This document shows, in pieces, positions 9,490 through 50,878 of a stretch of DNA of 64,000 nt. This DNA is from a candidate division FCPU426 bacterium (GTDB lineage Bacteria > Oederibacteriota > JAAXVQ01 > JAUVAV01): NCBI GenBank assembly GCA_040756875.1, contig JBFLYH010000002.1:981246-1045245 (forward strand). Reading direction: 5' to 3'. Each line of letters starts with the position of its first letter. The first letter of the stretch is position 1. A program made the translations under genes and the position numbers. The notes below the pieces were generated by a model. It saw only the letters and a program-made list of their open reading frames with translations. It was not told the origin of the DNA and did no database searches.

Positions 9490-9495
9490 CGTCCC

Positions 9496-10882: not shown

Positions 10883-11023
10883 ATGGAATGCCAGAGGCCT
10901 TAAGGCGGATTCCGACGGTATCCTGCGGAGCGGTGAATGGGCTTTGTTGTTCGAATCTGGTTTTTTTTAGAAAGTATGTTAAGATAGCCCCGGAATTTAT
11001 TCGTTCCTCCGAAGGAGCTCCTT

Positions 11024-11977: not shown

Positions 11978-12081
11978 CGCGGGAGCGGGCGGGCGAAAGC
12001 GGAAAATAGGGAACAGACCGCCGTTCGGGTTGCCGGAGGGTCCGGCGCCGGTTCCGGAGTGGCCAAGAGAGGGGTGGGCGC

Positions 12082-26130: not shown

Positions 26131-27456
26131 GTGCCTGAATCTTTCTCCGCCAGACAATTAATCGGTTGCGCCCTGGCTATCGGGCTGCTGCTTACAGGCT
26201 GCCGCGGCGCCACCCAGGCCCCGGCCTGGTCCCAGCGCTCCCTGATCGCCGGCCCTGAAATCCTCGTCCGTCTCTGGCGCAAAACCCCCTTCACGCAAGT
26301 GCAGCTCTCCTGGGACGGCACGCCGCTGCTGGCGGTGGATGCCAACGGAGAAATCATCCCCCTGCCGCAGGTCAACCGGCTCTATTTCTACCAGCGCGGC
26401 GAGCAGGTGGCCCTGGCATTCAAAGCCGGCCGCAAGGCGGCCCGCGAAGCCCAGGCGTACTCCTCGCTGGTGCTGCGGGTCCCGGGATCCGAGGTCAAGG
26501 CGTTCACGGTGTTGATCCCGGAATACGGCCGGCGGCGCAACTACGGCGCCCAAGCCGTGAGCCTGTCCGTGAAATACGGGCACTTGGCGCTGATCAACCA
26601 TCTGCCGCTGGAAATGTACCTGGCGCGCGTGCTGCCCGAGGAAATGGATCCGGAGCATTTCACGCTGGAGGCGCTCAAAGCCCAGGCCGTGGTGGCGCGC
26701 ACCTGGTCCCTGACCAATCTCAACCGGCACGCCCGCTATGGGTATCATTTTTGCGACGGGCCCCACTGCCAGGCCTACCGCGGCCGCAAGCGGGTGTCCG
26801 GCCGGGCCGAGGACGCGGTGAAGATGACCCTGGGCGAAGTGGTGCTCTCCGGCGGCGAGCCGGCCGAGGCGTTTTACCACAGCACCTGCGGGGGCAACAC
26901 GGCGTTCGTGGAAGACGTATGGCCCGGGGCCCGGCTTCCGTATCTGAGGCGCGTCGAGGACCGCTTCCGCCCCGGTCAGCGCGCCTACTGCGCCCATTCC
27001 CCCTATTCACGCTGGACGCTGTGGACTTCGCTCCGGCACGTGGAGCGGGTATTGAAACGCCGCCAGGCGATCGCCGCCGAAACCAATCTGCTGGACGTCA
27101 AAGTGGACGCGGTCAACCGTTCCGGCCGCGTGCTCAGGATTTGGCTGGCCACAGACCGCGGCGAATTGACACTGGGCGGGGAGTCCTTTCGCGCGTGGCT
27201 GAACGAGGAGTTCGGGCGAAAGCTCCTGAGCACGTTTTATTCCATCAGGGTGGAGGACGGGCAGTTTAAGCTGGAGGGGAAAGGCCTGGGACACGGGGTC
27301 GGCATGTGCCAATGGGGCGCCCGGGGCATGGCCCAGCTCGGTTTTTCCTACCAGGACATCCTACAGCATTACTTTCCGGGGACCACGATCGGCCGGTTCG
27401 AGGGGGCGGCCGTGGAACCCGGGGCGACCACGGTGAATTCGCACGCCGGGAAGTAG
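26131..27456 (+). CDS. SpoIID/LytB-domain protein (putative peptidoglycan-acting lipoprotein)
   Basis: GTG start at 26131; lipobox LLTGC; SpoIID/LytB blocks HSTCGGNTAFVEDVW and GHGVGMCQWGARGMA. Confidence 0.7.
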   Translation: MPESFSARQLIGCALAIGLLLTGCRGATQAPAWSQRSLIAGPEILVRLWRKTPFTQVQLSWDGTPLLAVDANGEIIPLPQVNRLYFYQRGEQVALAFKAGRKAAREAQAYSSLVLRVPGSEVKAFTVLIPEYGRRRNYGAQAVSLSVKYGHLALINHLPLEMYLARVLPEEMDPEHFTLEALKAQAVVARTWSLTNLNRHARYGYHFCDGPHCQAYRGRKRVSGRAEDAVKMTLGEVVLSGGEPAEAFYHSTCGGNTAFVEDVWPGARLPYLRRVEDRFRPGQRAYCAHSPYSRWTLWTSLRHVERVLKRRQAIAAETNLLDVKVDAVNRSGRVLRIWLATDRGELTLGGESFRAWLNEEFGRKLLSTFYSIRVEDGQFKLEGKGLGHGVGMCQWGARGMAQLGFSYQDILQHYFPGTTIGRFEGAAVEPGATTVNSHAGK

Positions 27457-29621: not shown

Positions 29622-29645
29622 TTAAAGCAGACAGGGTGATTCGAG

Positions 29646-29702
29646 AGCAGACAGCAGCAAGGTGAAAGGGCAGCCACTGCGTTCACCTTGCTGCTGTCTG
29701 CT
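29646..29702. repeat. 21-bp perfect inverted repeat with 15-nt loop
   Basis: AGCAGACAGCAGCAAGGTGAA (29646-29666) / TTCACCTTGCTGCTGTCTGCT (29682-29702); direct repeat AGCAGACAG also at 29625. Confidence 0.8.
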
Positions 29703-29904
29703 TATATTGTATCTGATTCACTGTCCGAGTGCCGGATGGCGCTCAGTCCGATTATACCCGCCCGGCGCCTTGAGCCAAGCATTAAGTTGCTGGACGCCCA
29801 TTTTTCTTCTCTATCTCGCCGCAAGCCGGAGGCAGGGCAGGGACGGGAGCCGGGTCTGACGAAAATCATTCATTTAAGCTGGTCGGCGTCAAAGGCTTTA
29901 AAAG

Positions 29905-29933
29905 TTGACAAGGCCATGACCCCCGACTATAAT
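29905..29933 (+). promoter_or_regulatory. consensus sigma70-type promoter TTGACA-17-TATAAT
   Basis: Perfect -35 (29905-29910), 17-nt spacer, perfect -10 (29928-29933); about 280 nt upstream of the YYY gene. Confidence 0.55.
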
Positions 29934-30212
29934 TGCACCAATTGTATTAAATTTTAGGCTTTTTCTGACCCTCGGTCTGTTCCGCCCTACCCGAACGAAC
30001 GGGTTCCCGCAAGTTATCCCGCAACGCCGAAGACCTTGGGTATGCCAGGGTATAAAGGCGTCATCAAGCGTTGCGGGATGTCGCCTGCCACTTGGCCGAC
30101 GACGCGAGGATGTTTAGTTATACCCCGGGCTTCGCCCGGGGGCTCTATATATATAATGTAGGCGTGGGCTTGGCACGGGAATGGCTTTGACACAGGAAGG
30201 GGATTCGCGCTG

Positions 30213-32618: not shown

Positions 32619-32702
32619 TCGCTGTGTATTGCCCCGGTGAGGAGCTCTCCGGGGTGACGTTGCCGGAACGACAAATTGAGTGAATATCGAAGGAGGCTCG
32701 GC

Positions 32703-34691: not shown

Positions 34692-34698
34692 AACGACA

Positions 34699-34722
34699 CC
34701 CTCCCCTTTGAGGGGGAGGGGG
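34699..34722. repeat. CCCTCCCC/GGGGAGGG palindrome
   Basis: CCCTCCCC-TTTGA-GGGGGAGGGGG directly after the stop at 34691. Confidence 0.6.
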
Positions 34723-34747
34723 AAAAATAAAGACGGAGGAAAGAAAC

Positions 34748-35704
34748 ATGCGTCAGCAGGAAAAAGTTGCGGCGATTGTGTTGGGTGCCAGCGTCGTGGT
34801 TTTGGCGGTCGCCATTTTCTTCGGTTTGCAGCGCGGCCGCGACGGCAACGCCAAACCCGGCGGCCAGGCCAACCCCATGGCCGGCGGCGACCGGGGCAAG
34901 GCGTCCGGGCAGTTGTGGGACCCGCGCGGTGTGGCCGTGGACGCCAAGGGCTTCGTGTACGTGGTGGATTCGAGCAACCACCGCATCCAGAAGTTCGACG
35001 CCGAAGGCAAGTTCGTGGCCAAGTGGGGGCAGGAAGGGCAGGGCGACGGCGAGTTCAAGACGCCGGGCGGCATCGACGTGGGGCCGGACGGGAACGTGTA
35101 CGTGGCGGACACCTGGAACCACCGGATACAAAAGTTCGACAACCGGGGCAAGTTCCTCAAGCAGTGGCCGGGCGAGGGCGGGTTCTGGGGGCCGCGTGAC
35201 GTAGCCGTGGATTCCAAAGGCTTCGTGTACGTGACGGACACGGGCAACCGCCGCATCCAGAAGTTCACCGGCGACGGCCAGTTCGTCAAGATGTGGGGGC
35301 AGAAAGGCTCGGGCCCCAACGACTACGACGAGCCCTTCGGCATTAAAGCCGACGACAAGGATTTGCTGTATATCTGCGACCGCCTCAATTTCCGCATTCA
35401 GGTCTGCGACACCGAGGGGCGCCTGGTCCGTTCCTGGCCCGTGGACGGCTGGCAGAAGGAACAGTTCTTCATGGAGCCCTACCTCTCCATCGACAACCGC
35501 CGCGACCGGGTGTACGTGACCGACCCGACCAAGCACCGCGTGCTGGTGTACGACCGCCAGGGCGGATTCAAGCAGCACCTGCTGCAGGACCCGGCCACCC
35601 AGCAGGCGTTTTCCACGCCCCTGGGCGTGGCGGTGAACGAGGAAACCGGCATGATTTATATCACGGATATGACGGCCAACCGGCTGTATAAAATCCAGCC
35701 TTAG
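34748..35704 (+). CDS. NHL-repeat beta-propeller protein, N-terminal membrane anchor
   Basis: Repeated blocks GVAVDxxGxVYVxDxxNHRIQKF; N-terminal TM helix. Confidence 0.75.
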   Translation: MRQQEKVAAIVLGASVVVLAVAIFFGLQRGRDGNAKPGGQANPMAGGDRGKASGQLWDPRGVAVDAKGFVYVVDSSNHRIQKFDAEGKFVAKWGQEGQGDGEFKTPGGIDVGPDGNVYVADTWNHRIQKFDNRGKFLKQWPGEGGFWGPRDVAVDSKGFVYVTDTGNRRIQKFTGDGQFVKMWGQKGSGPNDYDEPFGIKADDKDLLYICDRLNFRIQVCDTEGRLVRSWPVDGWQKEQFFMEPYLSIDNRRDRVYVTDPTKHRVLVYDRQGGFKQHLLQDPATQQAFSTPLGVAVNEETGMIYITDMTANRLYKIQP

Positions 35705-35715
35705 GAGGGATGAAC

Positions 35716-36828
35716 ATGGCCACCAAACGCAAACCAAGCCGGACGCAAACCAAGCCGGCGGCGCGCAAATCCGCGGCGGCGCGCAAGCCTGCTGGCGCCG
35801 CACTCAAAACCAGCGCGGCCAAAGCCGCCGCCGGACGCAAACCCGCCCACCGCGAAAGCCATAAAACCGCCTCCGGCGGCAACCGCGGCCTGGTGTTTTT
35901 CGGCGCGATCGCCGTGCTGGTCGTGGCCATGGCCGTGGTCGCAAAACTCAGGCAGGGGCCGCCGGTGAAGCTCCTGCCCGCGGAGGTGCTGGGCACTTAC
36001 ACCGCGGCGGACAACGCCGCCGGCGCCCTGTCGTCGCCGCGCGGGATCGCCGTGACGCGTGAAGGGGAAGTGGTGGTGGCTGATCTGGGCAACCACCGGA
36101 TCGTGGCTTTTGCGCCGGACGGCAGCGTGGCCGACACCTGGGGCCGCAAGGGCACGGCCGCCGGCGAGTTCAACGAGCCGTCGGGCGTGGCCGTGGACAG
36201 CCGAGGCGACTTCTACGTGGCCGACACCTGGAACGGACGCATCCAAAAATTCTCCCCCCGCGGCGAGTACTTCGGCGAAATCACCTCGAAAACCGGGAAC
36301 TTCTATTCGCCGCGCAACGTGGCCGTGGACAGCCATGGGTTCGTGTACGTGGCGGACACGGGCAATTCCTGCGTGAAGAAATTCGACACGGACGCCAACC
36401 TGGTGAAACGCTGGGGCGAATACGGCTCCGGGCACGACCGGTTCCAGGAAACCTTCGGCCTGGCCGTGGACGCGGCCGGCCAGGTGTACGTGGGCGACGC
36501 GGGCAACCGCCGCATCAAAATTTACACCAGCGACGGCAAGTTCCTGCGCGACCTGCGGGTCAAGGGCTGGCAGAGCGGGGTGGGCTGGCCCATGCTGGCG
36601 CTGGACGCGCAGGGCCGGGTTTACGCCACGGACGTGCAGCACAACATGGTATGGATTTACAGCCGCGAGGGCAAGTACCTGGGGAGCTTCGGCAACCAGC
36701 CGGGCAAGGAGCTGTTCTCCTCGCCGCTGGGGATCGCCATCGGGCCGGACGGCAGCGTGTACGTGTCGAACATGAACCGCGGCGAGATTCTGAAACTCAA
36801 AGGCTTGGCCCCGGAGCCGCCGAAATAG
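35716..36828 (+). CDS. NHL-repeat beta-propeller protein, basic N-terminus and membrane anchor
   Basis: Start at ATG 35716 (SD spacing); NHL blocks (GIAVTREGEVVVADLGNHRIVAF...). Confidence 0.75.
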   Translation: MATKRKPSRTQTKPAARKSAAARKPAGAALKTSAAKAAAGRKPAHRESHKTASGGNRGLVFFGAIAVLVVAMAVVAKLRQGPPVKLLPAEVLGTYTAADNAAGALSSPRGIAVTREGEVVVADLGNHRIVAFAPDGSVADTWGRKGTAAGEFNEPSGVAVDSRGDFYVADTWNGRIQKFSPRGEYFGEITSKTGNFYSPRNVAVDSHGFVYVADTGNSCVKKFDTDANLVKRWGEYGSGHDRFQETFGLAVDAAGQVYVGDAGNRRIKIYTSDGKFLRDLRVKGWQSGVGWPMLALDAQGRVYATDVQHNMVWIYSREGKYLGSFGNQPGKELFSSPLGIAIGPDGSVYVSNMNRGEILKLKGLAPEPPK

Positions 36829-36876
36829 GGCGCGCCCGGGCATCGTGGTCATCCCCGAGGGATGAGGAGGGACGGC

Positions 36877-37923
36877 ATGGCAACAGCAAGCGACAAACGG
36901 AAGCCGAAAAAGACAGCGGCCCAGGGAAGCAAAGCGGCCACCCGGGCCAGACAGGCCAAAAGCCAGGCGGCGATTCCCGCCCCGGTTGCGGCCTCCGCGC
37001 CCGCGGCGCCGCCCCGGGCTGCCAAACCGGGCTTGCCGCACGGAATCATTCTGGGCGTTTTGCTGGCCCTGGTGGTTTTGGTCAGCGTGGAGGTCGTGAT
37101 CCTCATGAAGGACAAGGCGGACCGGAAGCGCATTCTGCGCGTGGTGGAAGTGGTGCCGGAACGCGGCGGGCCGCCGGACATGCCGGGCAAGTTCTGGGGG
37201 CCGTACCAGGTCAAGGTCAACGAACAGGCGGGCCGCTTGGCCCTGGTCGACCACGCGTTCAACAAGGTCGTGCTGTGGGACCTGGCCACCAAGAAGCACG
37301 TGGTCGACGTCAACGCCGCCTTGCTGGGACGGGAGCAGTTCGTTCCAAAGGACGTCGATGTGGCCGATGACGGCGACTATTACATCCTCGACCACTCTGA
37401 CATGACGGTCAAACGGTTCTCGGCCCAGAACCAGCTGGTCCAGCAGTGGAAGATTCCGGAGAGCGTCAGCCTGACGGCCGGCAAGGACCGCGATGTGTAC
37501 GTGCTGGACGGCAGGGCCCAGGAGATCGTCCATTATCAAAACGACGGCACCGAACTCGGGCGTTTCGGCAAGGGTAAGTTGAAAAACGGCCTGTTGATGG
37601 ACACGGATGAGGCCGGCAACATCTACGTGGTGGATTCCGGCTACAACGGCATGGTGGTTTTCTCGAAGGCGGGCAAGCACCTGTATTCCTGGCCGATCAA
37701 GGAAGTGAAGCCCTTGCAGATGTCGCGCATGGCGGCGGTCAACAACCAAGTGTATTTCTACGACCTGGTCAACAACAACGGGATCATCAGAGTGTACACC
37801 CCCAAAGGCCGCCTGGCGTGGGATATCGGCCCGCAGCGCACAGAATCATTTGACGTCGGCCGCTCGGGGACGGTGTACATGTCCGGCAACGACGGCATCG
37901 TCATTCAGCAAATCGAGAAGTGA
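36877..37923 (+). CDS. membrane-anchored beta-propeller-like protein (divergent NHL-like paralog)
   Basis: Start at ATG 36877 (RBS GAGGAGGGA); N-terminal basic region and TM; repeated YVLD/YVVD blocks. Confidence 0.5.
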   Translation: MATASDKRKPKKTAAQGSKAATRARQAKSQAAIPAPVAASAPAAPPRAAKPGLPHGIILGVLLALVVLVSVEVVILMKDKADRKRILRVVEVVPERGGPPDMPGKFWGPYQVKVNEQAGRLALVDHAFNKVVLWDLATKKHVVDVNAALLGREQFVPKDVDVADDGDYYILDHSDMTVKRFSAQNQLVQQWKIPESVSLTAGKDRDVYVLDGRAQEIVHYQNDGTELGRFGKGKLKNGLLMDTDEAGNIYVVDSGYNGMVVFSKAGKHLYSWPIKEVKPLQMSRMAAVNNQVYFYDLVNNNGIIRVYTPKGRLAWDIGPQRTESFDVGRSGTVYMSGNDGIVIQQIEK

Positions 37924-37937
37924 GGCCCAGGTAGCCA

Positions 37938-41537: not shown

Positions 41538-41539
41538 GC

Positions 41540-42817
41540 ATGGCCGCGGAACGGAAGGAAGGCTTGGTCGGCGTCTCCCTGCTGCTGTTCCTGCTGACCA
41601 TGGGGAACAGCGTCTGCGGCTTTGCGCTCCACGCCGTGGCCAGCCGCGTGCTGGGCCCGGAGGACTATGGCGCCTTCGTAAGCCTGCTGGCCCTGCTGAT
41701 GATCCTGGCCGTGCCCAGCCAGGCGGTGCAAATGATCGTCGCCAAACAGATCACGCTCGAGTTGATCCAGAACCAGCTGCGCCGCGCCGTCGTCCTGACC
41801 TGGCAGGCGGTGCGCTGGTCGGCGGCCGCCGGAATGCTGTTGTGGCTGGCCGTGACGCTCGCCCTGCCGGTCCTGAAATCCTTCCTGCACCTGCCTTCCG
41901 CGTCCCCCCTCCTGGCGGTCGGCGCCGCGATCGTCCTGACGCTGATCACCCCGGTGCTGCGCGGTTTTCTGCAAGGCACTCAGCGTTTCCAGGCTTTGGG
42001 CTGGAACTTCTTTTTAGAGGGCGTGGGGCGTCTGGCCTGGGGCGCACTGTTTCTGCTGGTGGGGTGGGGCGTCCTGGGCGCGGTCCTGGCCAGCGCCGCC
42101 GGCGCCTTGACGGCCGCGCTGATCGCCGTCTGGCTGCTGGGCGCCGCAGCCAAGGGCCTGGACCGGAACGGCCCGGAGCAGCCGGCCGCCCGGACGTCGC
42201 TGGGGCTGCAGGATTACGGCTGGCTGGTGCTGGTCACCATGGCCGCGTTTTTCGCCCTGTCCAACCTGGACGTGCTGATCGTCAAACACCTCTTTCCGCA
42301 GGCCGACGCCGGATATTATTCGGCCGGTTCTCTGATCGGCAAGGCGTTTCTGTTCCTGCCCTACACCTTTGCCCAGGTCCTGTTTCCGAAAGCCAGCCGC
42401 CACCATGCCCTGGGCGAGAGCACCCTCTCCCTGTTGAACCGCAGCCTGCTGTACACGGCCGCGGCCCTGCTGCTGGGGATGATTGCGGTCTACGCGCTGG
42501 CGCCGGTCCTGCTGTCGGTGCTGTTCGGGCCGGAATACAACAATCCCACCACCCTGCGCATGATCCGCTATTTCGGCGCGGCCATGACGCCGCTGGCCCT
42601 GGTATACGTGATGATGCAGTACAGCCTGGCGCTTAAAAACGCCGAGTTGTCCCTGCTGATGCTGGCGGATCTTCCGGTCTTCATTATCCTGCTCATGACT
42701 CTGCCCCGCAGCCTGGAAGGCGTACTCCTGGCCATGGGCTTGAATTTCCTGATCCTGGCGGCGGCCGGCTACGCGGCCATCCGGGCCAAGGCGCAGCCCC
42801 TGGCCGCGAAAGCCTAG
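41540..42817 (+). CDS. polysaccharide/oligosaccharide flippase-like membrane protein (Wzx/MOP-like)
   Basis: ATG 41540, 3 nt after the previous stop; 425 aa, ~12 predicted TM helices. Confidence 0.5.
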   Translation: MAAERKEGLVGVSLLLFLLTMGNSVCGFALHAVASRVLGPEDYGAFVSLLALLMILAVPSQAVQMIVAKQITLELIQNQLRRAVVLTWQAVRWSAAAGMLLWLAVTLALPVLKSFLHLPSASPLLAVGAAIVLTLITPVLRGFLQGTQRFQALGWNFFLEGVGRLAWGALFLLVGWGVLGAVLASAAGALTAALIAVWLLGAAAKGLDRNGPEQPAARTSLGLQDYGWLVLVTMAAFFALSNLDVLIVKHLFPQADAGYYSAGSLIGKAFLFLPYTFAQVLFPKASRHHALGESTLSLLNRSLLYTAAALLLGMIAVYALAPVLLSVLFGPEYNNPTTLRMIRYFGAAMTPLALVYVMMQYSLALKNAELSLLMLADLPVFIILLMTLPRSLEGVLLAMGLNFLILAAAGYAAIRAKAQPLAAKA

Positions 42818-42830
42818 AGGGAGGCGGCGC

Positions 42831-43685
42831 ATGGACCCCCTTCGCCCGCAGGATGCCGGCGTGGACGTCACCCTGGTCATTCCGGCTTATAATGTGGAAA
42901 CCCGCATCGTGCCCCTGCTCCAGTCGGCCCGGGACCAGCAGGGAGCGAAGGTTGAGACCCTGGTGGTCGACGATGCGTCGACCGACCGCACGGCCGAGGT
43001 GGCCGAGCACTGGGGCGCGCGGGTCGTGCGCAACGAGGTCAACCTGGACCGCTCGGAGGCCCGCAACGTGGGGGCCCGGGCGGCGCGGGGCAAATACATC
43101 TGGTTCATCGATTCGGACATGGAACTGACCCCGGGCATCGCGCAGGCGGCTTGGGAGGCCTGCGAACGCGAACAGCTGGACGGGCTGGTCATTCCGGAGC
43201 GCATCCGGCCGGCGAACCTGTGGGCCAAGAGCCGCAACCTGGAATTTATCATCAACGACAGCGACGAGGAGCGCTTTGTCCTGCGCTTCGTCCGCCGGGA
43301 CTTCTTCCTGCAAACCAAGGGGTTCGACGCCAGCCTGATCGCGGCCGAGGATTACGACTACCACCGCCGCATGCTGGACCATGGCGCCCGTTACCGGCTG
43401 CTGACAGGCTGGCACGTCTGGCACCACGAGCTGACCTCCATGCGGCGGGTGCTGAAAAAGTACTATTACTACGGGCTGACCATGTCGCTGTACATCCGGC
43501 GGCACAAGCAGCTGGCCGTGCGGCAGTTCTCGTTTCCCCGGCGCGGCTACCTTAAGCGGCTGGACCTGCTGCTGGGCCATCCCTGGCTGACGGCGAGCCT
43601 TTTTTTCTTCAAGACCCTCCAGTACGCGGCCGGCTTGGCGGGCATTGTGATGGCCTGGCTGGGATGGGACCGGGCGAAAAAATGA
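42831..43685 (+). CDS. glycosyltransferase family 2
   Basis: VTLVIPAYNVE...LVVDDASTDRT...DSD motifs. Confidence 0.75.
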   Translation: MDPLRPQDAGVDVTLVIPAYNVETRIVPLLQSARDQQGAKVETLVVDDASTDRTAEVAEHWGARVVRNEVNLDRSEARNVGARAARGKYIWFIDSDMELTPGIAQAAWEACEREQLDGLVIPERIRPANLWAKSRNLEFIINDSDEERFVLRFVRRDFFLQTKGFDASLIAAEDYDYHRRMLDHGARYRLLTGWHVWHHELTSMRRVLKKYYYYGLTMSLYIRRHKQLAVRQFSFPRRGYLKRLDLLLGHPWLTASLFFFKTLQYAAGLAGIVMAWLGWDRAKK

Positions 43686-44827
43686 GGCCCGCGCCCGCGT
43701 ATTTCATCGCCTGCCATATCGGAGACGACTACGGACCGCAGTTCGCCCTGCGCAACCACCTGGTCAAGCGGCGGGCGTCGTTCGTGTTTGTCACCTGCCC
43801 GTTCGATTTCGCCCGGGTTCCGGCCGCGCGGCTCGAACGGTACGAACAGGGGCAGTGCGTGGAAACCGTCGTCGGGCACGCCAACCGGAGCAAAGGGGTG
43901 GTCAGCTGGGTCAAGGACGTGCTGTTCGTGCTGGCCGCGGGCTTGCGCTGGTGCGGGCGCCGGACCCAGTTCATCGGCATCAACAACCTGCACGCCTCGG
44001 TGGGGGTGTTGCTCCGCTGGCTGAAGCGCTGCCAAAGCGTGGTGTACTACATCGTGGACTACACGCCGCGGCGCTTTCCCTCGCGGGTGCTGAACCTGGT
44101 CTACCAGCGGCTGGCCCGGTTCGCGGGCCGGCACGCGGATTGCCTGTGGGCCGTGTCGGAGCGGATCAAGCGGGTCTATACGGCCTGGGGGGCCGCGGAG
44201 CCGGCCAGCCTGGTGGTTCCCATCGGCCTGGACCCCGAGGACATCAGCGTGGCCGAACCCGGCCAGGTGGAGCGCAACACGCTGGTGGTCGTCAGCACGC
44301 TCTTCGAGAACAAGGGGGTCCAGCTGGCCATCGAGGCGCTGCCGGCCCTGCCCGGGGCGCGGCTGAAAATCATCGGCGTGGGCCCGTACGCCGACGCCCT
44401 GCGCGGCCTGGCCCGGTCCCGGGAAGTGGAAGACCGGGTGGCGTTCCTCGGGCATCTGGACCGCAAGGCGCTGTTCGCGGAGGTGGCGCGCAGCCGTATC
44501 GCCCTGGCGACGTACGTGGCCGACGCGGCCAACTATTCCTACTACGCGGATTCAGCCAAGCCGAAGGAGTATCTGGCCTGCGGCGTGCCGACGGTCATTA
44601 CCCGGGTGCCCTGGATCGCCGAACTTATTGCGGAAAAACCCATGGGTCTTGCGATAGAATATCGGGTCGAGGAACTGGTCGCGGCCTGCCGCCGCCTGTT
44701 CGAGGACGACGCCTTGTGGCGGACCTGCCGCGAGAACGCCCTGCGTTTCTCGCAGGGGCAGACCTGGGAGGCCATTTACGACGCGGCCCTGTCCCGGACC
44801 GGGGCCGGGCGCGGGAGGACGGCATGA
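43682..44827 (+). CDS. glycosyltransferase family 4 (GT-B fold)
   Basis: ATGA-coupled; C-terminal GT4 donor-binding block with EYLACGVPTVITRV. Confidence 0.65.
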   Translation: MRPAPAYFIACHIGDDYGPQFALRNHLVKRRASFVFVTCPFDFARVPAARLERYEQGQCVETVVGHANRSKGVVSWVKDVLFVLAAGLRWCGRRTQFIGINNLHASVGVLLRWLKRCQSVVYYIVDYTPRRFPSRVLNLVYQRLARFAGRHADCLWAVSERIKRVYTAWGAAEPASLVVPIGLDPEDISVAEPGQVERNTLVVVSTLFENKGVQLAIEALPALPGARLKIIGVGPYADALRGLARSREVEDRVAFLGHLDRKALFAEVARSRIALATYVADAANYSYYADSAKPKEYLACGVPTVITRVPWIAELIAEKPMGLAIEYRVEELVAACRRLFEDDALWRTCRENALRFSQGQTWEAIYDAALSRTGAGRGRTA

Positions 44828-45597
44828 ACCCGTTTAAACGGCTGCTCAAATGGTACGCGCCCATGGCCTTCGGCGACGGGTTGAACCGCTGCAATCAGCT
44901 GGCCCTGCGGCTGGCGCGGCGGGAGCCGTGGCAGCGGCTGCTGGATGTCGGCTGCGGTGACGGGGAACTGACCGCGAAATTCCTCGCGGGCGCGTCCGGC
45001 CGCCGGGCGGACGGCATCGAATACGTCGCCGCGCTGCACGAGGCGGCCGGACGGCGGGGGATCGCCTGCCGCAGCCTGGACGTCAACCTGCCGTGGACCG
45101 GCGTCGGCGATTCGGCCTACGACCTGGTGCTGTCCAGCCAGAACATCGAGCACGTGCACAACACGCGCCTGTACCTGGAGGAGTGCCGCCGCTGCCTGAA
45201 ACCCGGGGGGAGGCTGCTGGTGCTGACCGAAAACCTGGCCTCCTGGATCAACATCGGCGCGCTGCTGTTCGGGTGGCAGCCCTTCTCGACCACCAACATC
45301 GACGGCTGGAGCGTCGGCAATCCCTGCGTGTGGCACGCCGACGAGCCGAAGGACATGGCTTTCGTCGAGGAGCAGAAAAAGCACGGCGTGACCGGGACCA
45401 CCGGCCACATCCGGGTGTGGACCCGCGCCGGCCTGGCGGATCTCCTGAAACGCGTGGGCTTTGAGGATGTCCGGCTCTACGGACGGGGGTATTTGCCGTT
45501 TTGGGGCTGGCTGTCGGACTGCCTGAGCGCGCTGGACGGCCGGCACAGCCATTTTCTCGTCGCCAGCGCCCGGAAGCCGGGCGGAGCGCCGGCCTAA
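44824..45597 (+). CDS. class I SAM-dependent methyltransferase
   Basis: ATGA-coupled; SAM motif I LLDVGCGDGELT. Confidence 0.7.
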   Translation: MNPFKRLLKWYAPMAFGDGLNRCNQLALRLARREPWQRLLDVGCGDGELTAKFLAGASGRRADGIEYVAALHEAAGRRGIACRSLDVNLPWTGVGDSAYDLVLSSQNIEHVHNTRLYLEECRRCLKPGGRLLVLTENLASWINIGALLFGWQPFSTTNIDGWSVGNPCVWHADEPKDMAFVEEQKKHGVTGTTGHIRVWTRAGLADLLKRVGFEDVRLYGRGYLPFWGWLSDCLSALDGRHSHFLVASARKPGGAPA

Positions 45598-45654
45598 GGC
45601 GGCCGGAAAGGCTCCGCAGCACGTCCATTCTGAAGCAAAGGGGGATGAACCCGC

Positions 45655-46623
45655 ATGCCTTCCCAGCCCCGCTCCGGAACGGCCAAACCCCGCTTGGTGG
45701 TGGTGGCGCCGTTCTACAATGAGCAGGAAGTGCTTCCCGAAACCGCCAAGCGTCTGACGGCGGTGCTTGACCAGTTGAAGCGGAAGGGGCGGATATCGCC
45801 CCAGAGCCACCTGCTGTTCGTGGACGACGGCAGCGAGGACGGCACCTGGAACCGGCTGAAAGAGCTGAAGAAGCGCCAGCCGTCCCTGGCCGCGCTGCGC
45901 CTATCGCGGAACTGCGGGCATCAGAACGCCTTGATGGCCGGATTGATGGCCGCGCGCACGCAAGCGGACTGCGTCATTTCCATCGACGGGGACCTGCAGC
46001 AGGACGAAAACGCGATCCCGGCGTTCGTGGAGAAGTACCGCGAGGGCTATGACCTCGTGTACGGCGTGCGCAAGAACCGGAGCACGGACTCGTTTTTCAA
46101 ACGGGCGACCGCGGAGATATTCTACCGGTTCATGCACATGCTGGGCGTGCGGGTGATCCGCAACCACGCGGATTACCGGCTGGCCAGCCGGCGGGCGCTC
46201 GACGCCCTGGCCGAGCACGGCGAGACCATGCTGTTCCTGCGGGGGATTTTCACCACCCTGGGGTTTAAAAGCACGGTCGTCTACCACGACGTGCGCGAAC
46301 GGTACGCCGGCGCCTCGAAGTACTCGGTGCGCAAAATGATGTCCTTCGCGCTGAACGGCATCACCTCGTTCACGTTCAGCCCCATCCGCTTCGTGAGTTT
46401 TCTGGGGCTGGGAGTGGTCGCGGCCAGCATCGTGGTGGGCATCCTGACCTGGCTGCTGACCAAGCCCGGCCAGGTCATTGATTTTAAAATCATCCTGTTT
46501 TTCGCGATCTACTTCCTGGGCGGCGTGCAGCTGGTCTGCCTGGGCGTGATCGGCGAATACGTGGGCAAGGTGTACGTGGAAGTGAAGAAGCGCCCCAAAT
46601 ACATCGTCGCCGAGGAGTTCTGA
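45655..46623 (+). CDS. polyprenyl-phosphate glycosyltransferase (GT2; DPM1/GtrB/ArnC-like)
   Basis: VVVAPFYNE...FVDDGSEDGT...IDGDLQQD motifs plus two C-terminal TM helices. Confidence 0.75.
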   Translation: MPSQPRSGTAKPRLVVVAPFYNEQEVLPETAKRLTAVLDQLKRKGRISPQSHLLFVDDGSEDGTWNRLKELKKRQPSLAALRLSRNCGHQNALMAGLMAARTQADCVISIDGDLQQDENAIPAFVEKYREGYDLVYGVRKNRSTDSFFKRATAEIFYRFMHMLGVRVIRNHADYRLASRRALDALAEHGETMLFLRGIFTTLGFKSTVVYHDVRERYAGASKYSVRKMMSFALNGITSFTFSPIRFVSFLGLGVVAASIVVGILTWLLTKPGQVIDFKIILFFAIYFLGGVQLVCLGVIGEYVGKVYVEVKKRPKYIVAEEF

Positions 46624-46626
46624 TCC

Positions 46627-47265
46627 GTGCGTCCCATGGAGCGGTTGTACCTGGACCGGCTTTTCCGCCGGGTGGAGGGCTTGCTGGCGGCCGGCGGCCT
46701 GAGGCCGGGCGCCTCGGTGCTGGATATGGGCTGCGGCGTCGGCCTCGACGCGGAATATCTGCTGGAGCGCGGTTTTCAGGTCACGGGCCTGGATGTGGAG
46801 CGGCACGACGGCGACTGGAAGGCCCTGGCCGGCCGCGGCATCCGTTTTGAATGCGCTTCAGCCGAGGACCTGCCGTATCCGGACGACAGTTTCGACGCCG
46901 TGTGGATCAAGGACGCGCTGCACCACATGCAACAGCCGGAACGGGCGCTGGCCGAAGCGCGCCGCGTGGCCAAGCCGGGCGGGCCGGTCATCGTGATCGA
47001 AGCCAACCGGTACAACCCGGTTTTTTACTTCCACCTGACGCTGTTCGGCGGGCACCAGCACTTCTCGCGGCGCCGGTTCAGGCAATTGCTGGGCACGGCT
47101 GCGGGCGACTACGCCCTGGCCCGGGCCGAGAGCCGCTGCCTGCCCTGGGACGCCGCCTGGCTGCGGGCCCTGCTGGGCTGGTTCGAGGACCGGGTGGAAG
47201 GCTGTCCGCTCCTCGCGCCGTGGCTCACGTATCAGATCGCAGTAATAAAAGGCGGGGCAGCATGA
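46627..47265 (+). CDS. class I SAM-dependent methyltransferase
   Basis: GTG start (alternative ATG at 46636); SAM motif VLDMGCGVGLD. Confidence 0.65.
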   Translation: MRPMERLYLDRLFRRVEGLLAAGGLRPGASVLDMGCGVGLDAEYLLERGFQVTGLDVERHDGDWKALAGRGIRFECASAEDLPYPDDSFDAVWIKDALHHMQQPERALAEARRVAKPGGPVIVIEANRYNPVFYFHLTLFGGHQHFSRRRFRQLLGTAAGDYALARAESRCLPWDAAWLRALLGWFEDRVEGCPLLAPWLTYQIAVIKGGAA

Positions 47266-48059
47266 AACATCGATGGCTGCGCGGGCTCTACCATTGGGCC
47301 TACCAGTTTGGCTGGGACGGTTTGCGCTGGCTGCAGGCCTGGCGGGGCCTGCCGGCGTTCCTGCGCAACCGGGCGCGCTTCAAGCGCCAGTGGAAACGAA
47401 CTCCGTCTCCCTTTGCCTGGGGCAAGCTGAGGCCCTGCCCGGCCGACCGCTTTGCCGACGCCGGCCAGGCCCGCGGGCATTACTTCCACCAGGACCTGTG
47501 GGCAGCCCAGCGCCTCTTTGCCAACCAGCCGGACCAGCACGTGGACGCCGGCTCGCGCGTGGACGGCTTCGTGGCGCACGTGGCCTCGTTCCGCGAACTC
47601 GAGGTCTGGGATCTGCGGCCCCAGCCCGGGCCCCTGCCGCGCAATCTCCGTTTCCGGCGGCAGGATCTGACCCAGCGGCCCTGGCCTTTGAACGGATACT
47701 GCGGCTCGCTCTCCTGCCTGAGCGTGCTCGAACACCTGGGGCTGGGGCGCTACGGCGATGCCGTGGACCCGGAGGCTTATCTGGCCGGCTGGGAGAACCT
47801 GCACGCCGCGCTGAAACCTGGGGGGCGGCTGTATTTCTCCGTGCCCATCGGGCCGGGCCGCATCGAGTTCGACGCGCACCGCGTGTTTGATTTGAGTTAT
47901 TTGCTGCCGCTGATCGAGGAAAAATACCTCGTCGAAGCCCTGGCGTATGTGAACGACGAGGGCGATTTGGTGGAGCCGGCGGGCCGGGACCAAGGGGCGG
48001 AACGCGCCAGCTTCGGCTGCTGGTTCGGCTGCGGACTGTTTGTGTTGAAGAAAAAATAG
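47262..48059 (+). CDS. methyltransferase-fold protein, DUF268-like
   Basis: ATGA-coupled; 265 aa; family assignment from motif memory only. Confidence 0.45.
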   Translation: MKHRWLRGLYHWAYQFGWDGLRWLQAWRGLPAFLRNRARFKRQWKRTPSPFAWGKLRPCPADRFADAGQARGHYFHQDLWAAQRLFANQPDQHVDAGSRVDGFVAHVASFRELEVWDLRPQPGPLPRNLRFRRQDLTQRPWPLNGYCGSLSCLSVLEHLGLGRYGDAVDPEAYLAGWENLHAALKPGGRLYFSVPIGPGRIEFDAHRVFDLSYLLPLIEEKYLVEALAYVNDEGDLVEPAGRDQGAERASFGCWFGCGLFVLKKK

Positions 48060-48136
48060 GACTGCCAAGCTCAAGGTAGGGGCGTTCAATTGAACGCCCC
48101 TACAAAACGAAAACCCACCGAAAGGAAGAAACATCC

Positions 48137-50878
48137 ATGTCCCGCGTTTCCTGGGGCGCCCTTAGCCTGGGCGCCCTTTTCCTGATCGGCCAGGTGGTGA
48201 TACTGGCCGGAAATCCGCCGCTGGGAGGCGCTGCCAGCCTCCTGGCCGTGGCGCTCAGCCTCGGCTGGTGGCTGAAGCGTTCCGGCAAGCCCATTGCGCC
48301 CTGGGTCGCGGTGGCGGCCCTGGGCTGTGCGGCCTGGGCCCAGGCCCTGGTGAAAGCCGAGCCCAAGGACGCGCTGTGGCTGTTTATTTTGTCCGGCCTG
48401 CTGCTTTTTTTGGCCAAGCCCGCCGGGCTTGGCTGGAAAGAGGACGGCGCCGTGCCGTCCGGGCGAGCGCCCCTGGAAAAATGGGAACCCTGGTTTGTGC
48501 TGGGGTTGCTGGGGCTGGCAATAGTGACGCGCTTCGTACCGATCAACGGTTTTCCCTTTGGGTCCATCGCCGAGGAAGCCCAGCACGTGCCCGTGCTCGA
48601 GGGCGCCATGGCCAGCCAGGTTTACGTGCCGCATTTCACGCACGGCAATATGGGCACACCCACCCTGATGAGCTACCTCGGCGCGGCCGCGTCCCGCGTT
48701 TTTGGCCGGCACATCAACAGCTACCGCATGGGCGTGGAGTTGTTCAGCGTCTTTTCCATCCTGGCCTTCTATTTCACAGCCCGGCGGGCAAGTTCGCCTT
48801 TCACGGCCGCGGTCACCAGCATCCTCTATTCGGTCTCCCTCTTGCACCTCACGCTCTCGCGGCGTTTTTATCCCTACATCGTGATTTTTTTACCCGTGGT
48901 CCTGGGCTGGGGGCTGTGGCTGGAGGGGCTGGCGCGCAGGCGCTGGTACTGGTTTTTCCTGGCCGGCCTGGCCGCGGGATTCAGCCTGCACGGCTATGAA
49001 CCGGGCCGGGGTGTGTTTCTGATCTTTTTAGCCTGGGCTGCCTGGATGTGGCTGGCCCACCGCCCCCGCCGGATGGTGAAGGGACTCACCCCAGGGGACT
49101 CCCTGCAGCCGGCTTCGCCTGGCCCCGCCCTGCCCTCTGGCCGGGACTTCGCCCTGTTTTGGGTGGGGTTCCTCATAGTCGCCGGTCCGATTTTTTATCA
49201 TATGAGCGTGCATTGGGACAATTACTGGCACTATGTGGCCAGCAAGAACCCCAACCGCACGCAAACACTGGCTGCGTATGTCAAGCAGGTGTGGTCCTTG
49301 GTCGGCGTTTATGCGCACTTGTTCCAGGTTAAGAGCGACGGCAATTACACGATGTACACCACCTACCAGCCCCTGCTTGACCCAGTGACCAGCGCCCTGT
49401 TCGGGCTGAGCTTCTTTTTCGTGCTGGCCCGCGCCTGGCAGCCCATGCCTTCCTTTGTCCTGCTGTTCTTTTTCGCCGGCCTGGCGCCTGCGCTGATCGG
49501 CGGCGGGGAGGAGCATCCGACCGCCCGCCGCACCTGCCTGGCCACCCCGGCCATCTATCTCATCATAGCCTTGGGCCTGGAGCGCCTGCGGCTGCTTTTC
49601 CGTCAGGGCCTGCCGTCCTGGGGGCGCAGGATCTTGCTGGCCGCGGCTGTTTTCCTGACCGCGGGCGTGGCCGCCTATTCGCTGCATTACTACTTCTTCG
49701 TGTTCGGCGACTCGCCCGAGGCGCGGACCGGGTATTGCTGGCGCGGCTTGAAGATCGCCCAGGCCCTGGACGCCCATCCCAAGGCGTACAGCCGGCTGCA
49801 ACCCCTGTTGTATCACGAACAGATTTGGGTGCTGGCCAAGCACCCCGGACAACCCGGGCTAGTGCCCACCCAGGAGGACCTGCTGGTGCTGGCGCCTGAC
49901 CAGGACCAGCAGCTCTTTTTGGAAGGCTACATGGAGCCGACCCTGCCGTTTTGGCGCTCCCAATTTCCCAACGCGCAGGTCACCGTTTACCGGGAGAAAT
50001 ATCCGGACCGGCCCTTTTGCGAGACCTGGCCGTACTTCAAACTGGGCACGGATCCCAACAATCCGGCCACGTACTTGATCCAGATCAACATTCCCAGGCA
50101 GGACGTGGCGTTTTTCCAAATGCTGGTGGACGCCACCACCGGACAGCACCTGCCGGTCTGGAATCCCGAGTTCGGAGCCGGACTGGTTCCCGGCCAGCGC
50201 CTGCGCCTGGCCGGCGCGGTGGTCACCCATCCTGGAGCGGTTTATTCCTGGAAACTGGGCTGGCTTGGCTGGCAAATAACCGTGGACAAAAAACCCGCGG
50301 AGTGGAGCCAAGACATCCCTCTGGACCAGGGCGTGCACTATTTCGAAATTTCCGGGCCGGTTCCTGCCGGCTGCGAGGGTCCGCTGCCCCTGGTGGTGCT
50401 GGAAAACGGCCGCAATGTGCAGCGCCTGGGGAGCGTGGTGGGGTTGCCCGCCAGGCAGGGCATGCTGGCCGAATACCGCAACAGTCCCAGCCGCTGGGAC
50501 GGGCCGGCTGAGGTTACCAGCCAAAAGCTATTCGGCCAGGAGCGATTCTACAGCGTACCTCCGGGCTTTGGGCTGCCGTTGTCGGCGATTTACCGCTGCC
50601 GGCTGCAGGTGCCCGAGGACGGCGAGTATTCTTTCGAGACCAAGCATTTTTCGCGCTGCCGGCTGCTGCTCGACGGCCGCGAAGCTTTCAATAACTTCAA
50701 CAATGTACAGGCGCCCGTGATCACGCCCATGGCCCTCGCCGCCGGCAAGCCGGTTGCGCTTGAAGCCCAGTTCATCGTCGAGGGCGAAACCCTGACCATG
50801 ACTTTTCAGCTTTTTTACCGCCGTCCGGGCCAAAAACAGGCGCAATGGGTGCCCATGGAGTGGCTCCGGTTGCCTTGA
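48137..50878 (+). CDS. large GT-C-like membrane protein with C-terminal PA14-like domain
   Basis: 913 aa; polytopic; acidic loop motif SIAEEAQHV; C-terminal beta-sandwich-like region (YRCRLQVPEDGEYSFE...LLLDGREAF). Confidence 0.5.
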   Translation: MSRVSWGALSLGALFLIGQVVILAGNPPLGGAASLLAVALSLGWWLKRSGKPIAPWVAVAALGCAAWAQALVKAEPKDALWLFILSGLLLFLAKPAGLGWKEDGAVPSGRAPLEKWEPWFVLGLLGLAIVTRFVPINGFPFGSIAEEAQHVPVLEGAMASQVYVPHFTHGNMGTPTLMSYLGAAASRVFGRHINSYRMGVELFSVFSILAFYFTARRASSPFTAAVTSILYSVSLLHLTLSRRFYPYIVIFLPVVLGWGLWLEGLARRRWYWFFLAGLAAGFSLHGYEPGRGVFLIFLAWAAWMWLAHRPRRMVKGLTPGDSLQPASPGPALPSGRDFALFWVGFLIVAGPIFYHMSVHWDNYWHYVASKNPNRTQTLAAYVKQVWSLVGVYAHLFQVKSDGNYTMYTTYQPLLDPVTSALFGLSFFFVLARAWQPMPSFVLLFFFAGLAPALIGGGEEHPTARRTCLATPAIYLIIALGLERLRLLFRQGLPSWGRRILLAAAVFLTAGVAAYSLHYYFFVFGDSPEARTGYCWRGLKIAQALDAHPKAYSRLQPLLYHEQIWVLAKHPGQPGLVPTQEDLLVLAPDQDQQLFLEGYMEPTLPFWRSQFPNAQVTVYREKYPDRPFCETWPYFKLGTDPNNPATYLIQINIPRQDVAFFQMLVDATTGQHLPVWNPEFGAGLVPGQRLRLAGAVVTHPGAVYSWKLGWLGWQITVDKKPAEWSQDIPLDQGVHYFEISGPVPAGCEGPLPLVVLENGRNVQRLGSVVGLPARQGMLAEYRNSPSRWDGPAEVTSQKLFGQERFYSVPPGFGLPLSAIYRCRLQVPEDGEYSFETKHFSRCRLLLDGREAFNNFNNVQAPVITPMALAAGKPVALEAQFIVEGETLTMTFQLFYRRPGQKQAQWVPMEWLRLP

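Follow-up and report, generated by a model that had tools for sequence, protein, structure and literature searches.

The cluster occupies positions 27369-50878 of the 64-kb window (the whole stretch of DNA analyzed, from an uncultured FCPU426 bacterium) and comprises 14 co-directional genes (g5-g18) and one divergent gene (g4). All 14 of the co-directional genes lie on a single strand, separated by gaps of 2-77 nt or overlapping by 4-22 nt, and no strong terminator was found inside g5-g18. A putative divergent promoter region, not assigned to a strand, lies between g4 and g5 (29751..29933) and consists of consensus matches only: TTGACA-17-TATAAT (29905-29933, +), upstream of g5, matches the sigma-70 consensus at 12 of 12 positions, and TTGGCT-16-TATAAT (29778-29751, -) does so at 10 of 12. 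The single strand, tight spacing, promoter match, and an order kept in relatives show that the clustering of g5-g18 is not due to chance. A sequence-only reading had listed five large membrane proteins, a polyprenyl-phosphate sugar synthase, a Wzx-like protein, GT2 and GT4 enzymes, three methyltransferase-fold proteins, and three NHL proteins, and each of these was recovered where that reading had placed it. All family assignments given here exceed curated cut-offs, except equivalog-level names.

Gene Content of the Cluster

The g5 gene (30213-32618, +) encodes an 801-aa DUF2298/TIGR03662 "YYY" protein (DUF2298, 4.5e-109; TIGR03662, 569.6 bits with a cut-off of 300), with YYYFG at residues 156-160. 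It combines a GT-C membrane module with an AglB-like C-terminal globular domain and carries a cytoplasmic Zn ribbon within a loop. Foldseek comparison of the predicted structure places DUF2298 nearest to protein oligosaccharyltransferases, with a C-terminal domain of the AglB type, and the modeled fold resembles that of an oligosaccharyltransferase-like GT-C. No sequence-level link of DUF2298 to any solved GT-C or other solved structure was found, and g5 has neither a Pfam STT3 match nor the WWDYG motif, in place of which stands an invariant GWxGHExQWRG. The g6 product (32676-34691, +; 671 aa) is a TIGR03663/Agl23-family GT-C (TIGR03663, 297.6 bits with a cut-off of 126; also PMT_2) that contains an N-terminal Zn ribbon, DE at 108, and HGP at 132; its HHDESxH and HGP motifs are invariant. 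This protein is nearest to ArnT.

These genes are followed by three encoding single-pass, membrane-anchored propellers. The NHL beta-propeller g7 (34748..35704, +; 318 aa; NHL, 4.8e-43) has one N-terminal TM helix and aligns over residues 45-313 with the domain that forms the C-terminus of Chloroflexota TIGR03663-NHL fusions. The second, g8 (35710..36828, +; 372 aa; NHL, 7.3e-42), has a TM helix at 60-78 and a cytoplasmic tail rich in K/A/P, while g9 (36862..37923, +; 353 aa) is a divergent NHL-like propeller with a weak match (NHL, 1e-4, 22.6 bits with a cut-off of 20), whose orthologs in L001 and L005 cross-match g7 and g8.

The second half of the cluster begins with g10 (37938-41537, +), a GT-C of 1199 aa (PMT_2, 3.3e-9; PA14, 1.3e-12) with an N-terminal multi-TM extension of ~400 aa, DE at 435 directly past a TM helix, and two PA14 stretches at the C-terminus; orthologs occur in L001, L005, and L084. 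The g11 gene (41540..42817, +) encodes a Wzx-like MOP-family protein and candidate flippase with ~12 TM helices (Polysacc_synt, 2.1e-14, 54 bits with a cut-off of 28); its counterparts come after the NHL genes in L002, L005, L006, L010, and L016. Next are a soluble GT2 glycosyltransferase (g12, 42831..43685, +; Glycos_transf_2, 9.3e-27), a GT4 (GT-B) glycosyltransferase (g13, 43664..44827, +; Glycos_transf_1, 1.1e-17), and a SAM methyltransferase (g14, 44824..45597, +; Methyltransf_23, 7.3e-17), the frame of which was recovered using the GC3 profile and translation. A GtrB/YkoT/ArnC-type polyprenyl-phosphate sugar synthase (GT2) with two C-terminal TM helices is encoded by g15 (45655..46623, +); it matches the PgfS (2.6e-71) and ArnC (3.4e-45) models over their full length but under the equivalog cut-offs. 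Two further methyltransferase-type genes, g16 (SAM methyltransferase; 46627..47265, +; Methyltransf_11, 1.3e-24) and g17 (DUF268 methyltransferase-fold protein; 47262..48059, +; PF03269, 1.4e-10), precede g18 (48137-50878, +), a 913-aa GT-C (PMT_2, 8.9e-8) with a C-terminal PA14 domain (1.8e-5).

Downstream, g19 (51157..57936, +) encodes a secreted helical giant protein of 2259 aa with a signal peptide and zero Pfam matches, which shares 54% identity, across 1791 alignment columns, with the ORF that follows the g18-like gene of L082. It is a neighbor by synteny, which does not imply a functional tie to the cluster.

The divergent gene g4 (27369-29621, -) encodes a polytopic membrane protein of 750 aa that matches the Pfam TMEM260-like/DUF2723 model (PF11028, 29.3 bits with a cut-off of 24.2) in its N-terminal 64 residues only and solved human TMEM260 (9rql) with an E-value of 0.0057. 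For human TMEM260, O-mannosyltransferase activity is proven and structures have been solved (PMC10214176; bioRxiv 10.64898/2026.03.17.711096). The likeness lies in the N-terminal membrane region; the differences are that the essential TMEM260 residues D52 and H67 have no counterparts in g4 and that no TPR domain was detected in it. Orthologs share no more than 28-35% identity with g4 and adjoin the cluster only in the close relatives L001, L004, and L005. Judging from its residues, g4 may not be an active transferase, and its catalytic status is doubtful. Thus, the proposal that all five large membrane proteins are GT-C-like is solid for g5, g6, g10, and g18 and doubtful for g4.

Conservation and Gene Fusions

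Gene order is kept for both halves of the cluster in relatives, whose DUF2298 proteins are 38-63% identical to g5. L001, L002, L003, and L005 encode DUF2298, TIGR03663, and two to three NHL proteins, then Wzx and GT2; L082 and L084 retain the second half. A 904-aa PMT_2 protein occupies the g18 position in L082, and a g17-type gene adjoins a GtrB-like gene in L082, L083, and L084. A core made up of a small GT2 with DUF2298, TIGR03663, and NHL recurs in FCPU426, Goldbacteria, Firestonebacteria, Spirochaetia, and Chloroflexota. The lack of conserved co-localization that would have refuted the sequence-only reading was not seen; co-localization extends across several phyla. The small GT2s adjoining DUF2298 in relatives have as best matches ArnC, PgfS, AglJ, PpgS, and a haloarchaeal dolichyl-phosphate hexose transferase. 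Where a genome locus extends 6 kb or more downstream of DUF2298 (51 loci), a TIGR03663-like ORF occurs in 37 and NHL in 31, with no NHL within reach in the other 20.

Fusions join several of the same modules. In 24 Chloroflexota ORFs a full TIGR03663 module is followed by a C-terminal NHL propeller, as Pfam confirms both directly and by precomputed domains, and PMT_2 is fused to DUF2298 or, in a single Chloroflexota protein, to PA14 and NHL. The Agl23 gene and a GtrA-family gene overlap by 4 nt on Halogeometricum pHBOR02.

A Putative Envelope-Glycosylation System

We consider it probable that the region forms a single conserved locus for envelope glycosylation, of the multi-component transmembrane (polyprenyl-phosphate-sugar/GT-C) kind, a reading made in silico. 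The earlier proposal of a glycosylation cluster built on GT-C proteins is upheld gene for gene in its parts and partly in its interpretation, of which the central idea stands. The evolutionary core is DUF2298, with its oligosaccharyltransferase-like architecture, together with the ArnT-like TIGR03663 and the NHL propellers; from fusions and synteny we infer that g5, g6, and the NHL proteins would form one membrane complex. That proposal had also regarded the core families as having no assigned function, which holds for DUF2298/TIGR03662 but not for TIGR03663, with its reports of Agl23 as a flippase, or for DUF2723, which includes TMEM260. DUF2298 is a large, unstudied membrane-enzyme family at the heart of a conserved glycosylation cluster.

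At the cytoplasmic face, g15 would load polyprenyl phosphate with sugar, g12 and g13 may lengthen a glycan on the lipid, and methyl groups may be added to it by g14, g16, and g17. Lipid-linked sugars would be moved outward by g11 and/or the Agl23-like g6, and the GT-C enzymes would then transfer them to an extracytoplasmic acceptor; the NHL propellers and PA14 domains would face outward, binding acceptor or glycan. Candidate parts for lipid-linked assembly, flipping, and outside transfer are present, as had been proposed. However, the window lacks genes for an initiating phosphoglycosyltransferase, Wzy, a ligase, and nucleotide sugars, so the classical Und-PP/Wzx/Wzy pathway, with its initiating, polymerizing, and ligating genes, is unsupported as such, and the oligosaccharide route is conjecture. 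By analogy with Haloferax AglJ/G/I/E and AglP, glycan assembly may use a monophosphate carrier; that would account for the lack of a phosphoglycosyltransferase.

Our favored acceptor, with somewhat less than an even chance, is a protein of the envelope, on which the PA14-bearing enzymes would subsequently decorate the glycan. The acceptor could quite possibly be instead a cell-envelope polysaccharide or lipoglycan, which the GT-Cs would extend or branch outside the membrane like mycobacterial Emb/Aft, with PA14 and NHL as carbohydrate-binding modules and methylation as decoration or chain termination. The carbohydrate-binding type of the PA14 domains on g10 and g18 is consistent with this, as are AftA, AftB, AftD, and EmbA among the structural neighbors of g5 and g6, and a Pseudobutyrivibrio DUF2298 gene sits within a surface-polysaccharide locus that also encodes GT2s, sugar-modifying enzymes, and a member of the O-antigen-ligase family. 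In addition, g15 is nearest to YkoT/CsbB-type enzymes, whose characterized relatives glycosylate teichoic acids. Against a glycopolymer stand the protein oligosaccharyltransferases as nearest neighbors of DUF2298, the absence of polymerase, chain-length regulator, export, and ligase genes from the window, and the fact that NHL propellers are not established as glycan binders.

Other readings divide the labor differently. The current NCBIfam name of TIGR03663 is "flippase activity-associated protein Agl23", and experiments on the family report flipping, not glycosyl transfer: purified Haloarcula hispanica Agl23 moves lipid-linked M5GN2 across liposome membranes and rescues a yeast rft1 deletion (Chen et al. 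2024, PMC11182771). As the cluster also lacks a GtrA-type small flippase, g6 might act on polyprenyl-phosphate sugars as a flippase or scramblase rather than a transferase, leaving DUF2298 and PMT_2-PA14 as the sole transferases and NHL proteins as unrelated partners or substrates. We regard this as unlikely; for TIGR03663, the structural comparison and the fusions speak for a transferase role, unassigned in the Agl23 papers. Slightly less probable still are two or more independent adjacent systems, a DUF2298/TIGR03663/NHL module beside a PMT_2-PA14/Wzx/GT/methyltransferase module, even though many Chloroflexota loci have the core without the second half, the g10-like gene varies in position (upstream of DUF2298 in L005), and only close relatives have the methyltransferases, GT4, and PA14 enzymes. 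The uninterrupted single-strand layout of g5-g18 argues for one system, as do the Wzx and GT2 genes that come immediately after NHL in L002, L006, L010, and L016, which include Goldbacteria-like and other lineages, the Chloroflexota protein joining PMT_2, PA14, and NHL, and the interleaving of NHL and second-half genes in L084. It is very improbable that the large membrane proteins belong to transporters or to some other non-GT-C group, the outcome that would have refuted the sequence-only reading: DUF2298 indeed has no sequence-level match to a solved structure, but the GT-C folds contradict this alternative.

Comparison with Known Systems

The locus shares features with several characterized systems. 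As in GtrA/B/C, CsbB/GtcA/YfhO, and PgfS/PgfM (PMC8035078, PMC5836110, PMC11092751), a cytoplasmic lipid-P-sugar synthase would serve an extracytoplasmic GT-C, and g15 shares 50-55% identity with YkoT of Bacillus and Paenibacillus and is similar to PgfS/ArnC over its full length. However, the cluster has no GtrA/GtcA small flippase, encodes five GT-C-like proteins instead of one, draws its GT-Cs from DUF2298 and TIGR03663, and adds soluble GTs and methyltransferases. Relative to Haloarcula Agl22/Agl23, g6 is a bona fide member of the family named after Agl23 and is likewise encoded with a GT2 enzyme of the polyprenyl-phosphate hexose synthase type, but the locus is bacterial, with presumably undecaprenyl rather than dolichyl phosphate as carrier, and g6, which bears an N-terminal Zn ribbon, is linked to DUF2298 and NHL propellers.

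N-glycosylation in Haloferax volcanii (AglJ/G/I/E, AglP, AglR, AglD, AglS, AglB; PMC3871713) similarly combines GT2/GT4 enzymes building on a lipid phosphate, a methyltransferase, a Wzx-like protein (AglR), an OST-fold enzyme, and a GT-C that acts outside the membrane, adding a sugar from a lipid-P-monosaccharide. The cluster differs in having no sequence-level AglB/STT3, the likeness of DUF2298 being structural only. It also encodes NHL propellers, three methyltransferases, and two GT-Cs with PA14, and no S-layer glycoprotein was identified. Compared with AglB/STT3/PglB themselves, g5 is distinguished by its motifs, including YYY, and its internal Zn ribbon, and the likeness does not extend to support for sequon or peptide binding. 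Mycobacterial Emb/AftA-D belong to other families, and their arabinose or decaprenyl pathway genes are absent here, but they too are GT-Cs that use polyprenyl-P-sugars and carry appended extracytoplasmic carbohydrate-binding modules, of other types than the PA14 and NHL domains seen here.

Gene content and setting of the cluster

The cluster at 27369–50878 is a GT-C-centred glycosylation locus, a reading that was put forward from the sequence alone and that is borne out by protein families, predicted fold, conservation in other genomes, and gene fusions. Genes were called from codon-position GC followed by a translation check. The g5 product is 100% identical to an NCBI protein from a metagenome-assembled genome of FCPU426. 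In this window of ~64% G+C from FCPU426, a candidate phylum, 14 forward-strand genes (g5–g18) occupy 30213–50878, spaced by 2–77 nt or overlapping by 4–22 nt, and g4 (27369–29621) lies on the opposite strand beyond a 591-nt spacer. Within the spacer (29751–29933), a g5-facing TTGACA-17-TATAAT is a perfect 12/12 match to the sigma-70 consensus in a 64% G+C genome, and a g4-facing match on the other strand scores 10/12; these suggest divergent promoters. Housekeeping genes lie upstream, including a Bat operon and genes for the TCA cycle, pyrimidine synthesis, a polysaccharide deacetylase, an Rce1-like protease, and SpoIID. The Bat-type operon (1–7633) encodes DUF58, VWA/BatA, VWA-TPR, BatD, and TPR-SH3 proteins.

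Each element of the originally proposed parts list was recovered by HMM searches, transmembrane (TM) prediction, and motif checks. The first forward-strand gene, g5, encodes a DUF2298 protein (4.5e-109; TIGR03662, 569.6 bits versus a cut-off of 300.25) with a YYYFG motif at residues 156–160 that is invariant among homologs. It is followed by g6, which matches TIGR03663 (297.6 bits versus a cut-off of 126.25) and PMT_2 and contains DE at residue 108, HGP at residue 132, and an N-terminal zinc ribbon. Three single-pass NHL propellers (g7–g9, the match of g9 being weak) precede g10, which, like the last gene, g18, combines PMT_2 with a C-terminal PA14 domain (48.2 and 25.0 bits, respectively; cut-off 24). 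In g10, a DE pair directly follows a TM helix upstream of the PMT_2 match, and EE occupies the corresponding place in g18. Ahead of its GT-C module, g10 has an N-terminal extension of ~400 residues (37938–39140) that matches no family and adds ~8 TM helices.

The remaining genes encode a Wzx/MOP-type protein with ~12 hydrophobic segments (g11; Polysacc_synt, 54.1 bits versus 28.2), a GT2 and a GT4 enzyme (g12 and g13), three methyltransferase folds (g14, g16, and g17, the last being DUF268), and a GT2 protein with two C-terminal TM helices at residues 246–264 and 279–297 (g15; Glycos_transf_2, 4.7e-22). The latter matches the PgfS model over positions 3–304 of 308 (2.6e-71) and the ArnC model over positions 8–309 of 316 (3.4e-45), each below the equivalog cut-off, and is 50–55% identical to YkoT. 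By family and architecture, g15 is a GtrB/ArnC/DPM1-type polyprenyl-phosphate glycosyltransferase.

The divergent gene g4 is the weak member among these GT-C-like proteins. It exceeds the Pfam threshold for the TMEM260-like/DUF2723 family (29.3 bits versus 24.2) over 64 N-terminal residues only (67–130) and has no TPR Pfam match. TMEM260 is a proven O-mannosyltransferase in which D52 and H67 are essential (bioRxiv 10.64898/2026.03.17.711096). When g4 is aligned to human TMEM260 (9rql), D52 falls in a gap, where g4 reads GG-QAEW, and H67 is opposite an R; both positions are unconserved in four g4 orthologs.

A search through every called gene of the whole window turned up no phosphoglycosyltransferase, Wzy, ligase, chain-length regulator, or nucleotide-sugar gene. 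The locus does not qualify as a classical Wzx/Wzy-dependent pathway, since the window lacks an initiating phosphoglycosyltransferase, Wzy, and a ligase or chain-length regulator. Likewise, it was not assigned to the Gtr-type three-component systems because no GtrA/GtcA small flippase gene is present among the called genes of the window, where intra-operon gaps are at most 77 nt.

Downstream of the cluster, g19 (51157–57936) encodes a secreted, A/L/Q-rich helical giant of 2259 residues with an N-terminal alpha/beta-hydrolase-like GKGSGG stretch. Near 57000, within the last ~300 codons of g19, G+C falls abruptly from ~0.65 to ~0.43, and it stays at 0.37–0.47 from there to the end of the window (64000). 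The low-GC C-terminal part of g19 contains a lipase-like VVAHSQG, and small ORFs lacking Pfam matches come next, one of them with a weak match to a T9SS sorting domain. The arrangement is suggestive of a swapped C-terminal toxin module and a cassette; a repeat scan of the low-GC tail returned nothing.

Conservation and domain fusions in other genomes

We scanned 78 genome loci, searched with the proteins of the window; cultivable carriers among the loci are Pelolinea submarina MO-CFX1, Leptolinea sp. HRD-7, and Ktedonobacter racemifer. Co-localisation in related genomes, on which the sequence-only reading depended, holds for both halves of the cluster. In one locus (L001, DUF2298 55% identical), SpoIID, a g4-like gene, DUF2298, TIGR03663, three NHL genes, a 1200-aa PMT_2-PA14 protein, and Wzx occur in the same order as here. 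A second locus (L002, 41%) contains DUF2298, TIGR03663, two NHL genes, Wzx, and GT2s, and in a third (L003, 38%) a 1502-aa fusion of PMT_2 and DUF2298 is accompanied by a GT2, DUF2298, and three NHL-like genes. Where at least 6 kb downstream of DUF2298 is available, a TIGR03663-like ORF is present in 37 of 51 loci and NHL in 31 of 51, as separate genes in 10 and as fusions in 21. The other half of the cluster recurs in L082, which encodes a g10-like protein, Wzx, GT4, GT2, a GtrB-like protein, a methyltransferase, DUF268, and a 904-aa PMT_2 protein and ends in a giant protein 54% identical to g19; L084 resembles it, with extra NHL genes interleaved. Small GT2s adjacent to DUF2298 in relatives have as best matches ArnC, PgfS, AglJ, PpgS, and a haloarchaeal dolichyl-phosphate hexose transferase, so a lipid-phosphate-sugar synthase belongs to the conserved set.

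The partners are also joined within single proteins. Chloroflexota provide 24 ORFs in which an NHL propeller (matching g7 residues ~45–313) comes after a complete TIGR03663 module (corresponding to g6 residues ~60–668); in one such fusion, Pfam places PMT/PMT_2 at 52–248 and five NHL repeats from residue 739. Precomputed domains give PMT_2 plus NHL in many database proteins of 860–1014 aa named Agl23/TIGR03663. One Chloroflexota protein combines PMT_2 with two PA14 stretches and NHL, and another combines PMT_2 with DUF2298 (Pfam). In g7–g9, a basic N-terminal tail is followed by a single TM helix, so by the positive-inside rule the propellers should face outward, like the GT-C C-terminus. We read NHL and PA14 as accessory modules of these GT-C enzymes, facing outward.

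Other features of these genes and loci were also observed. Tails of ~55 residues rich in Lys, Ala, Pro, and Arg precede the anchors of g8 (35710–35890) and g9 (36862–37045); g7 has none. Chloroflexota loci (L064 at 7121–12418, L021, L023, L076, and others) usually encode, upstream of a single DUF2298, a second protein of 1,500–2,700 aa in which the DUF2298 module follows ~700–1,000 N-terminal residues; this N-terminal part is PMT_2 in L003 and has no Pfam match in L064. A g10-like PMT_2 gene and a methyltransferase similar to g16 often lie ahead of these loci.

Predicted architecture of the DUF2298 and TIGR03663 proteins

The core families had been described as lacking assigned functions. Two of the three now have one, TIGR03663 as Agl23 and DUF2723/TMEM260 as an O-mannosyltransferase, and the description stands for DUF2298, which is a very large family without experimentally assigned function. 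A profile search returned 7,842 representatives at 50% identity with E ≤1e-10, including double forms of 2,400–2,700 aa. No study of DUF2298 function was found in the literature searched, and searches on GT-C with NHL and on DUF2298 and TIGR03662/3 by name gave nothing relevant.

A structure model of g5 built with 42 homologs in the input (pLDDT 89.2, pTM 0.91) has the GT-C membrane fold and, after the last TM helix, a globular C-terminal domain of the AglB-core type. In Foldseek, AglB ranks first (E 2e-6, 785 alignment columns), and 9 of the 14 matches at E <2e-3 are AglB, STT3, or PglB. The predicted architecture of DUF2298 is oligosaccharyltransferase (OST)-like. PDB sequence searches with g5, g6, and g10 singly and with a g5 profile returned zinc-ribbon or noise matches only, so the fold assignment rests on AF2 models. 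Because g5 has no WWD in its sequence, no Pfam STT3 match, and no PDB sequence match, we file it as OST-like in architecture and not as a true OST. WWDYG is absent from g5, which has an invariant GWxGHExQWRG (GWxGHExQW at 717–725). In the homolog alignment, D31, which directly follows the first helix, shows at least 90% conservation, and E99, E123, D144, E251, D261, H263, H265, D318, R590, and K596 are invariant; both statements apply at the sequence level only.

The g6 protein is predicted to have a GT-C fold in which the first outer loop begins with an acidic motif, and no variation is seen at D108, E109, H132, G133, P134, R155, R199, or R202 across 46 sequences. In NCBIfam, TIGR03663 is now named "flippase activity-associated protein Agl23". 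Flippase activity in the family is known only from Haloarcula hispanica Agl23, which in purified form translocates lipid-linked M5GN2 and which rescues a yeast rft1 deletion (Chen et al., PMC11182771). The ArnT-like fold of the models, the invariant outer-face motif, and the fused outward propeller speak for a transferase role of TIGR03663 proteins, or at least for that of a subunit engaging the acceptor; scrambling of lipid-linked sugars may be a further activity. A Wzx-like protein (g11) is encoded in the window itself. A plasmid-collection search gave three matches only, two of them informative; on Halogeometricum borinquense pHBOR02 (L085, 12019–14390), an annotated Agl23 gene and a gene of the GtrA family overlap by 4 nt, so that in this single observation (n=1) Agl23 stands where "GtrC" would in a Gtr-type system. 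Two GH18 and two PKD-domain genes lie near this Agl23 gene.

Direct homology between DUF2298 and TIGR03663 is not claimed because the zinc ribbon is the only region common to the two profiles (hhalign, 84% probability). Ribbons of the same type occur in a loop of g5 (31521–31583, residues 437–457) and at the N-terminus of g6 (32709–32774, residues 12–33), on the presumed cytoplasmic side, and are kept in many homologs.

Proposed pathway and acceptor

Judging from its family and architecture, g15 would make a polyprenyl-phosphate sugar. A lipid-linked glycan might be extended by g12 and g13 and methylated by g14, g16, and g17, and lipid-linked sugars would be translocated by g11 and/or g6. Transfer of the sugars on the outer side of the membrane would then fall to DUF2298, TIGR03663, and the two PMT_2-PA14 enzymes. 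A glycan assembled on a monophosphate carrier is an attractive possibility by analogy with the Haloferax AglJ/G/I/E and AglP pathway, which builds on such a carrier (PMC3871713), and would explain the lack of a phosphoglycosyltransferase in the window.

In its OST-like architecture, DUF2298 points to a protein as acceptor, whereas the PA14 domains, together with a DUF2298 gene inside a Pseudobutyrivibrio surface-polysaccharide locus, point to a glycan; the two readings could be compatible if the glycan sits on a protein and is lengthened extracellularly. That the NHL propellers are themselves glycosylated is less likely, because their fusion to the enzyme C-terminus in the 24 ORFs fits an outward accessory module. 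The giant protein g19 was also considered as acceptor and set aside, as synteny in one relative is its sole link to the cluster.

A broader proposal, which we regard as rather unlikely, is that DUF2298, a family of at least 5,000 clusters at 50% identity, forms an unrecognised class of OST-like transferases acting in a hetero-complex with the TIGR03663 GT-C and NHL propellers to glycosylate envelope proteins in Chloroflexota, several candidate phyla, and Archaea (the last by TIGRFAM name and description). In that case, "Agl23" would chiefly serve as a transferase or acceptor-recognition subunit, its flippase activity a by-product of the lipid-binding groove. Archaeal DUF2298 matches here are limited to partial ones on haloarchaeal plasmids.

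The value of the locus lies in DUF2298, the fusion network, and the question over the Agl23 "flippase". The function of DUF2298 is made testable by its OST-like predicted structure, by the PMT_2-type GT-C encoded beside it and in some genomes fused to it, and by the NHL and PA14 modules fused to partner enzymes in other genomes. The locus also bears on the live debate over which proteins flip lipid-linked sugars, as the sole "flippase" label of the system sits on a protein with a complete predicted ArnT-like enzyme fold and an appended outward-facing propeller. Should the acceptor be a protein, Chloroflexota and several uncultured phyla would glycosylate proteins with unstudied machinery. Appended modules occur in GT-C enzymes elsewhere, namely MIR domains in PMTs, TPRs in TMEM260 and TMTC, and CBMs in Emb and AftD, and an accessory role for NHL and PA14 would parallel these.
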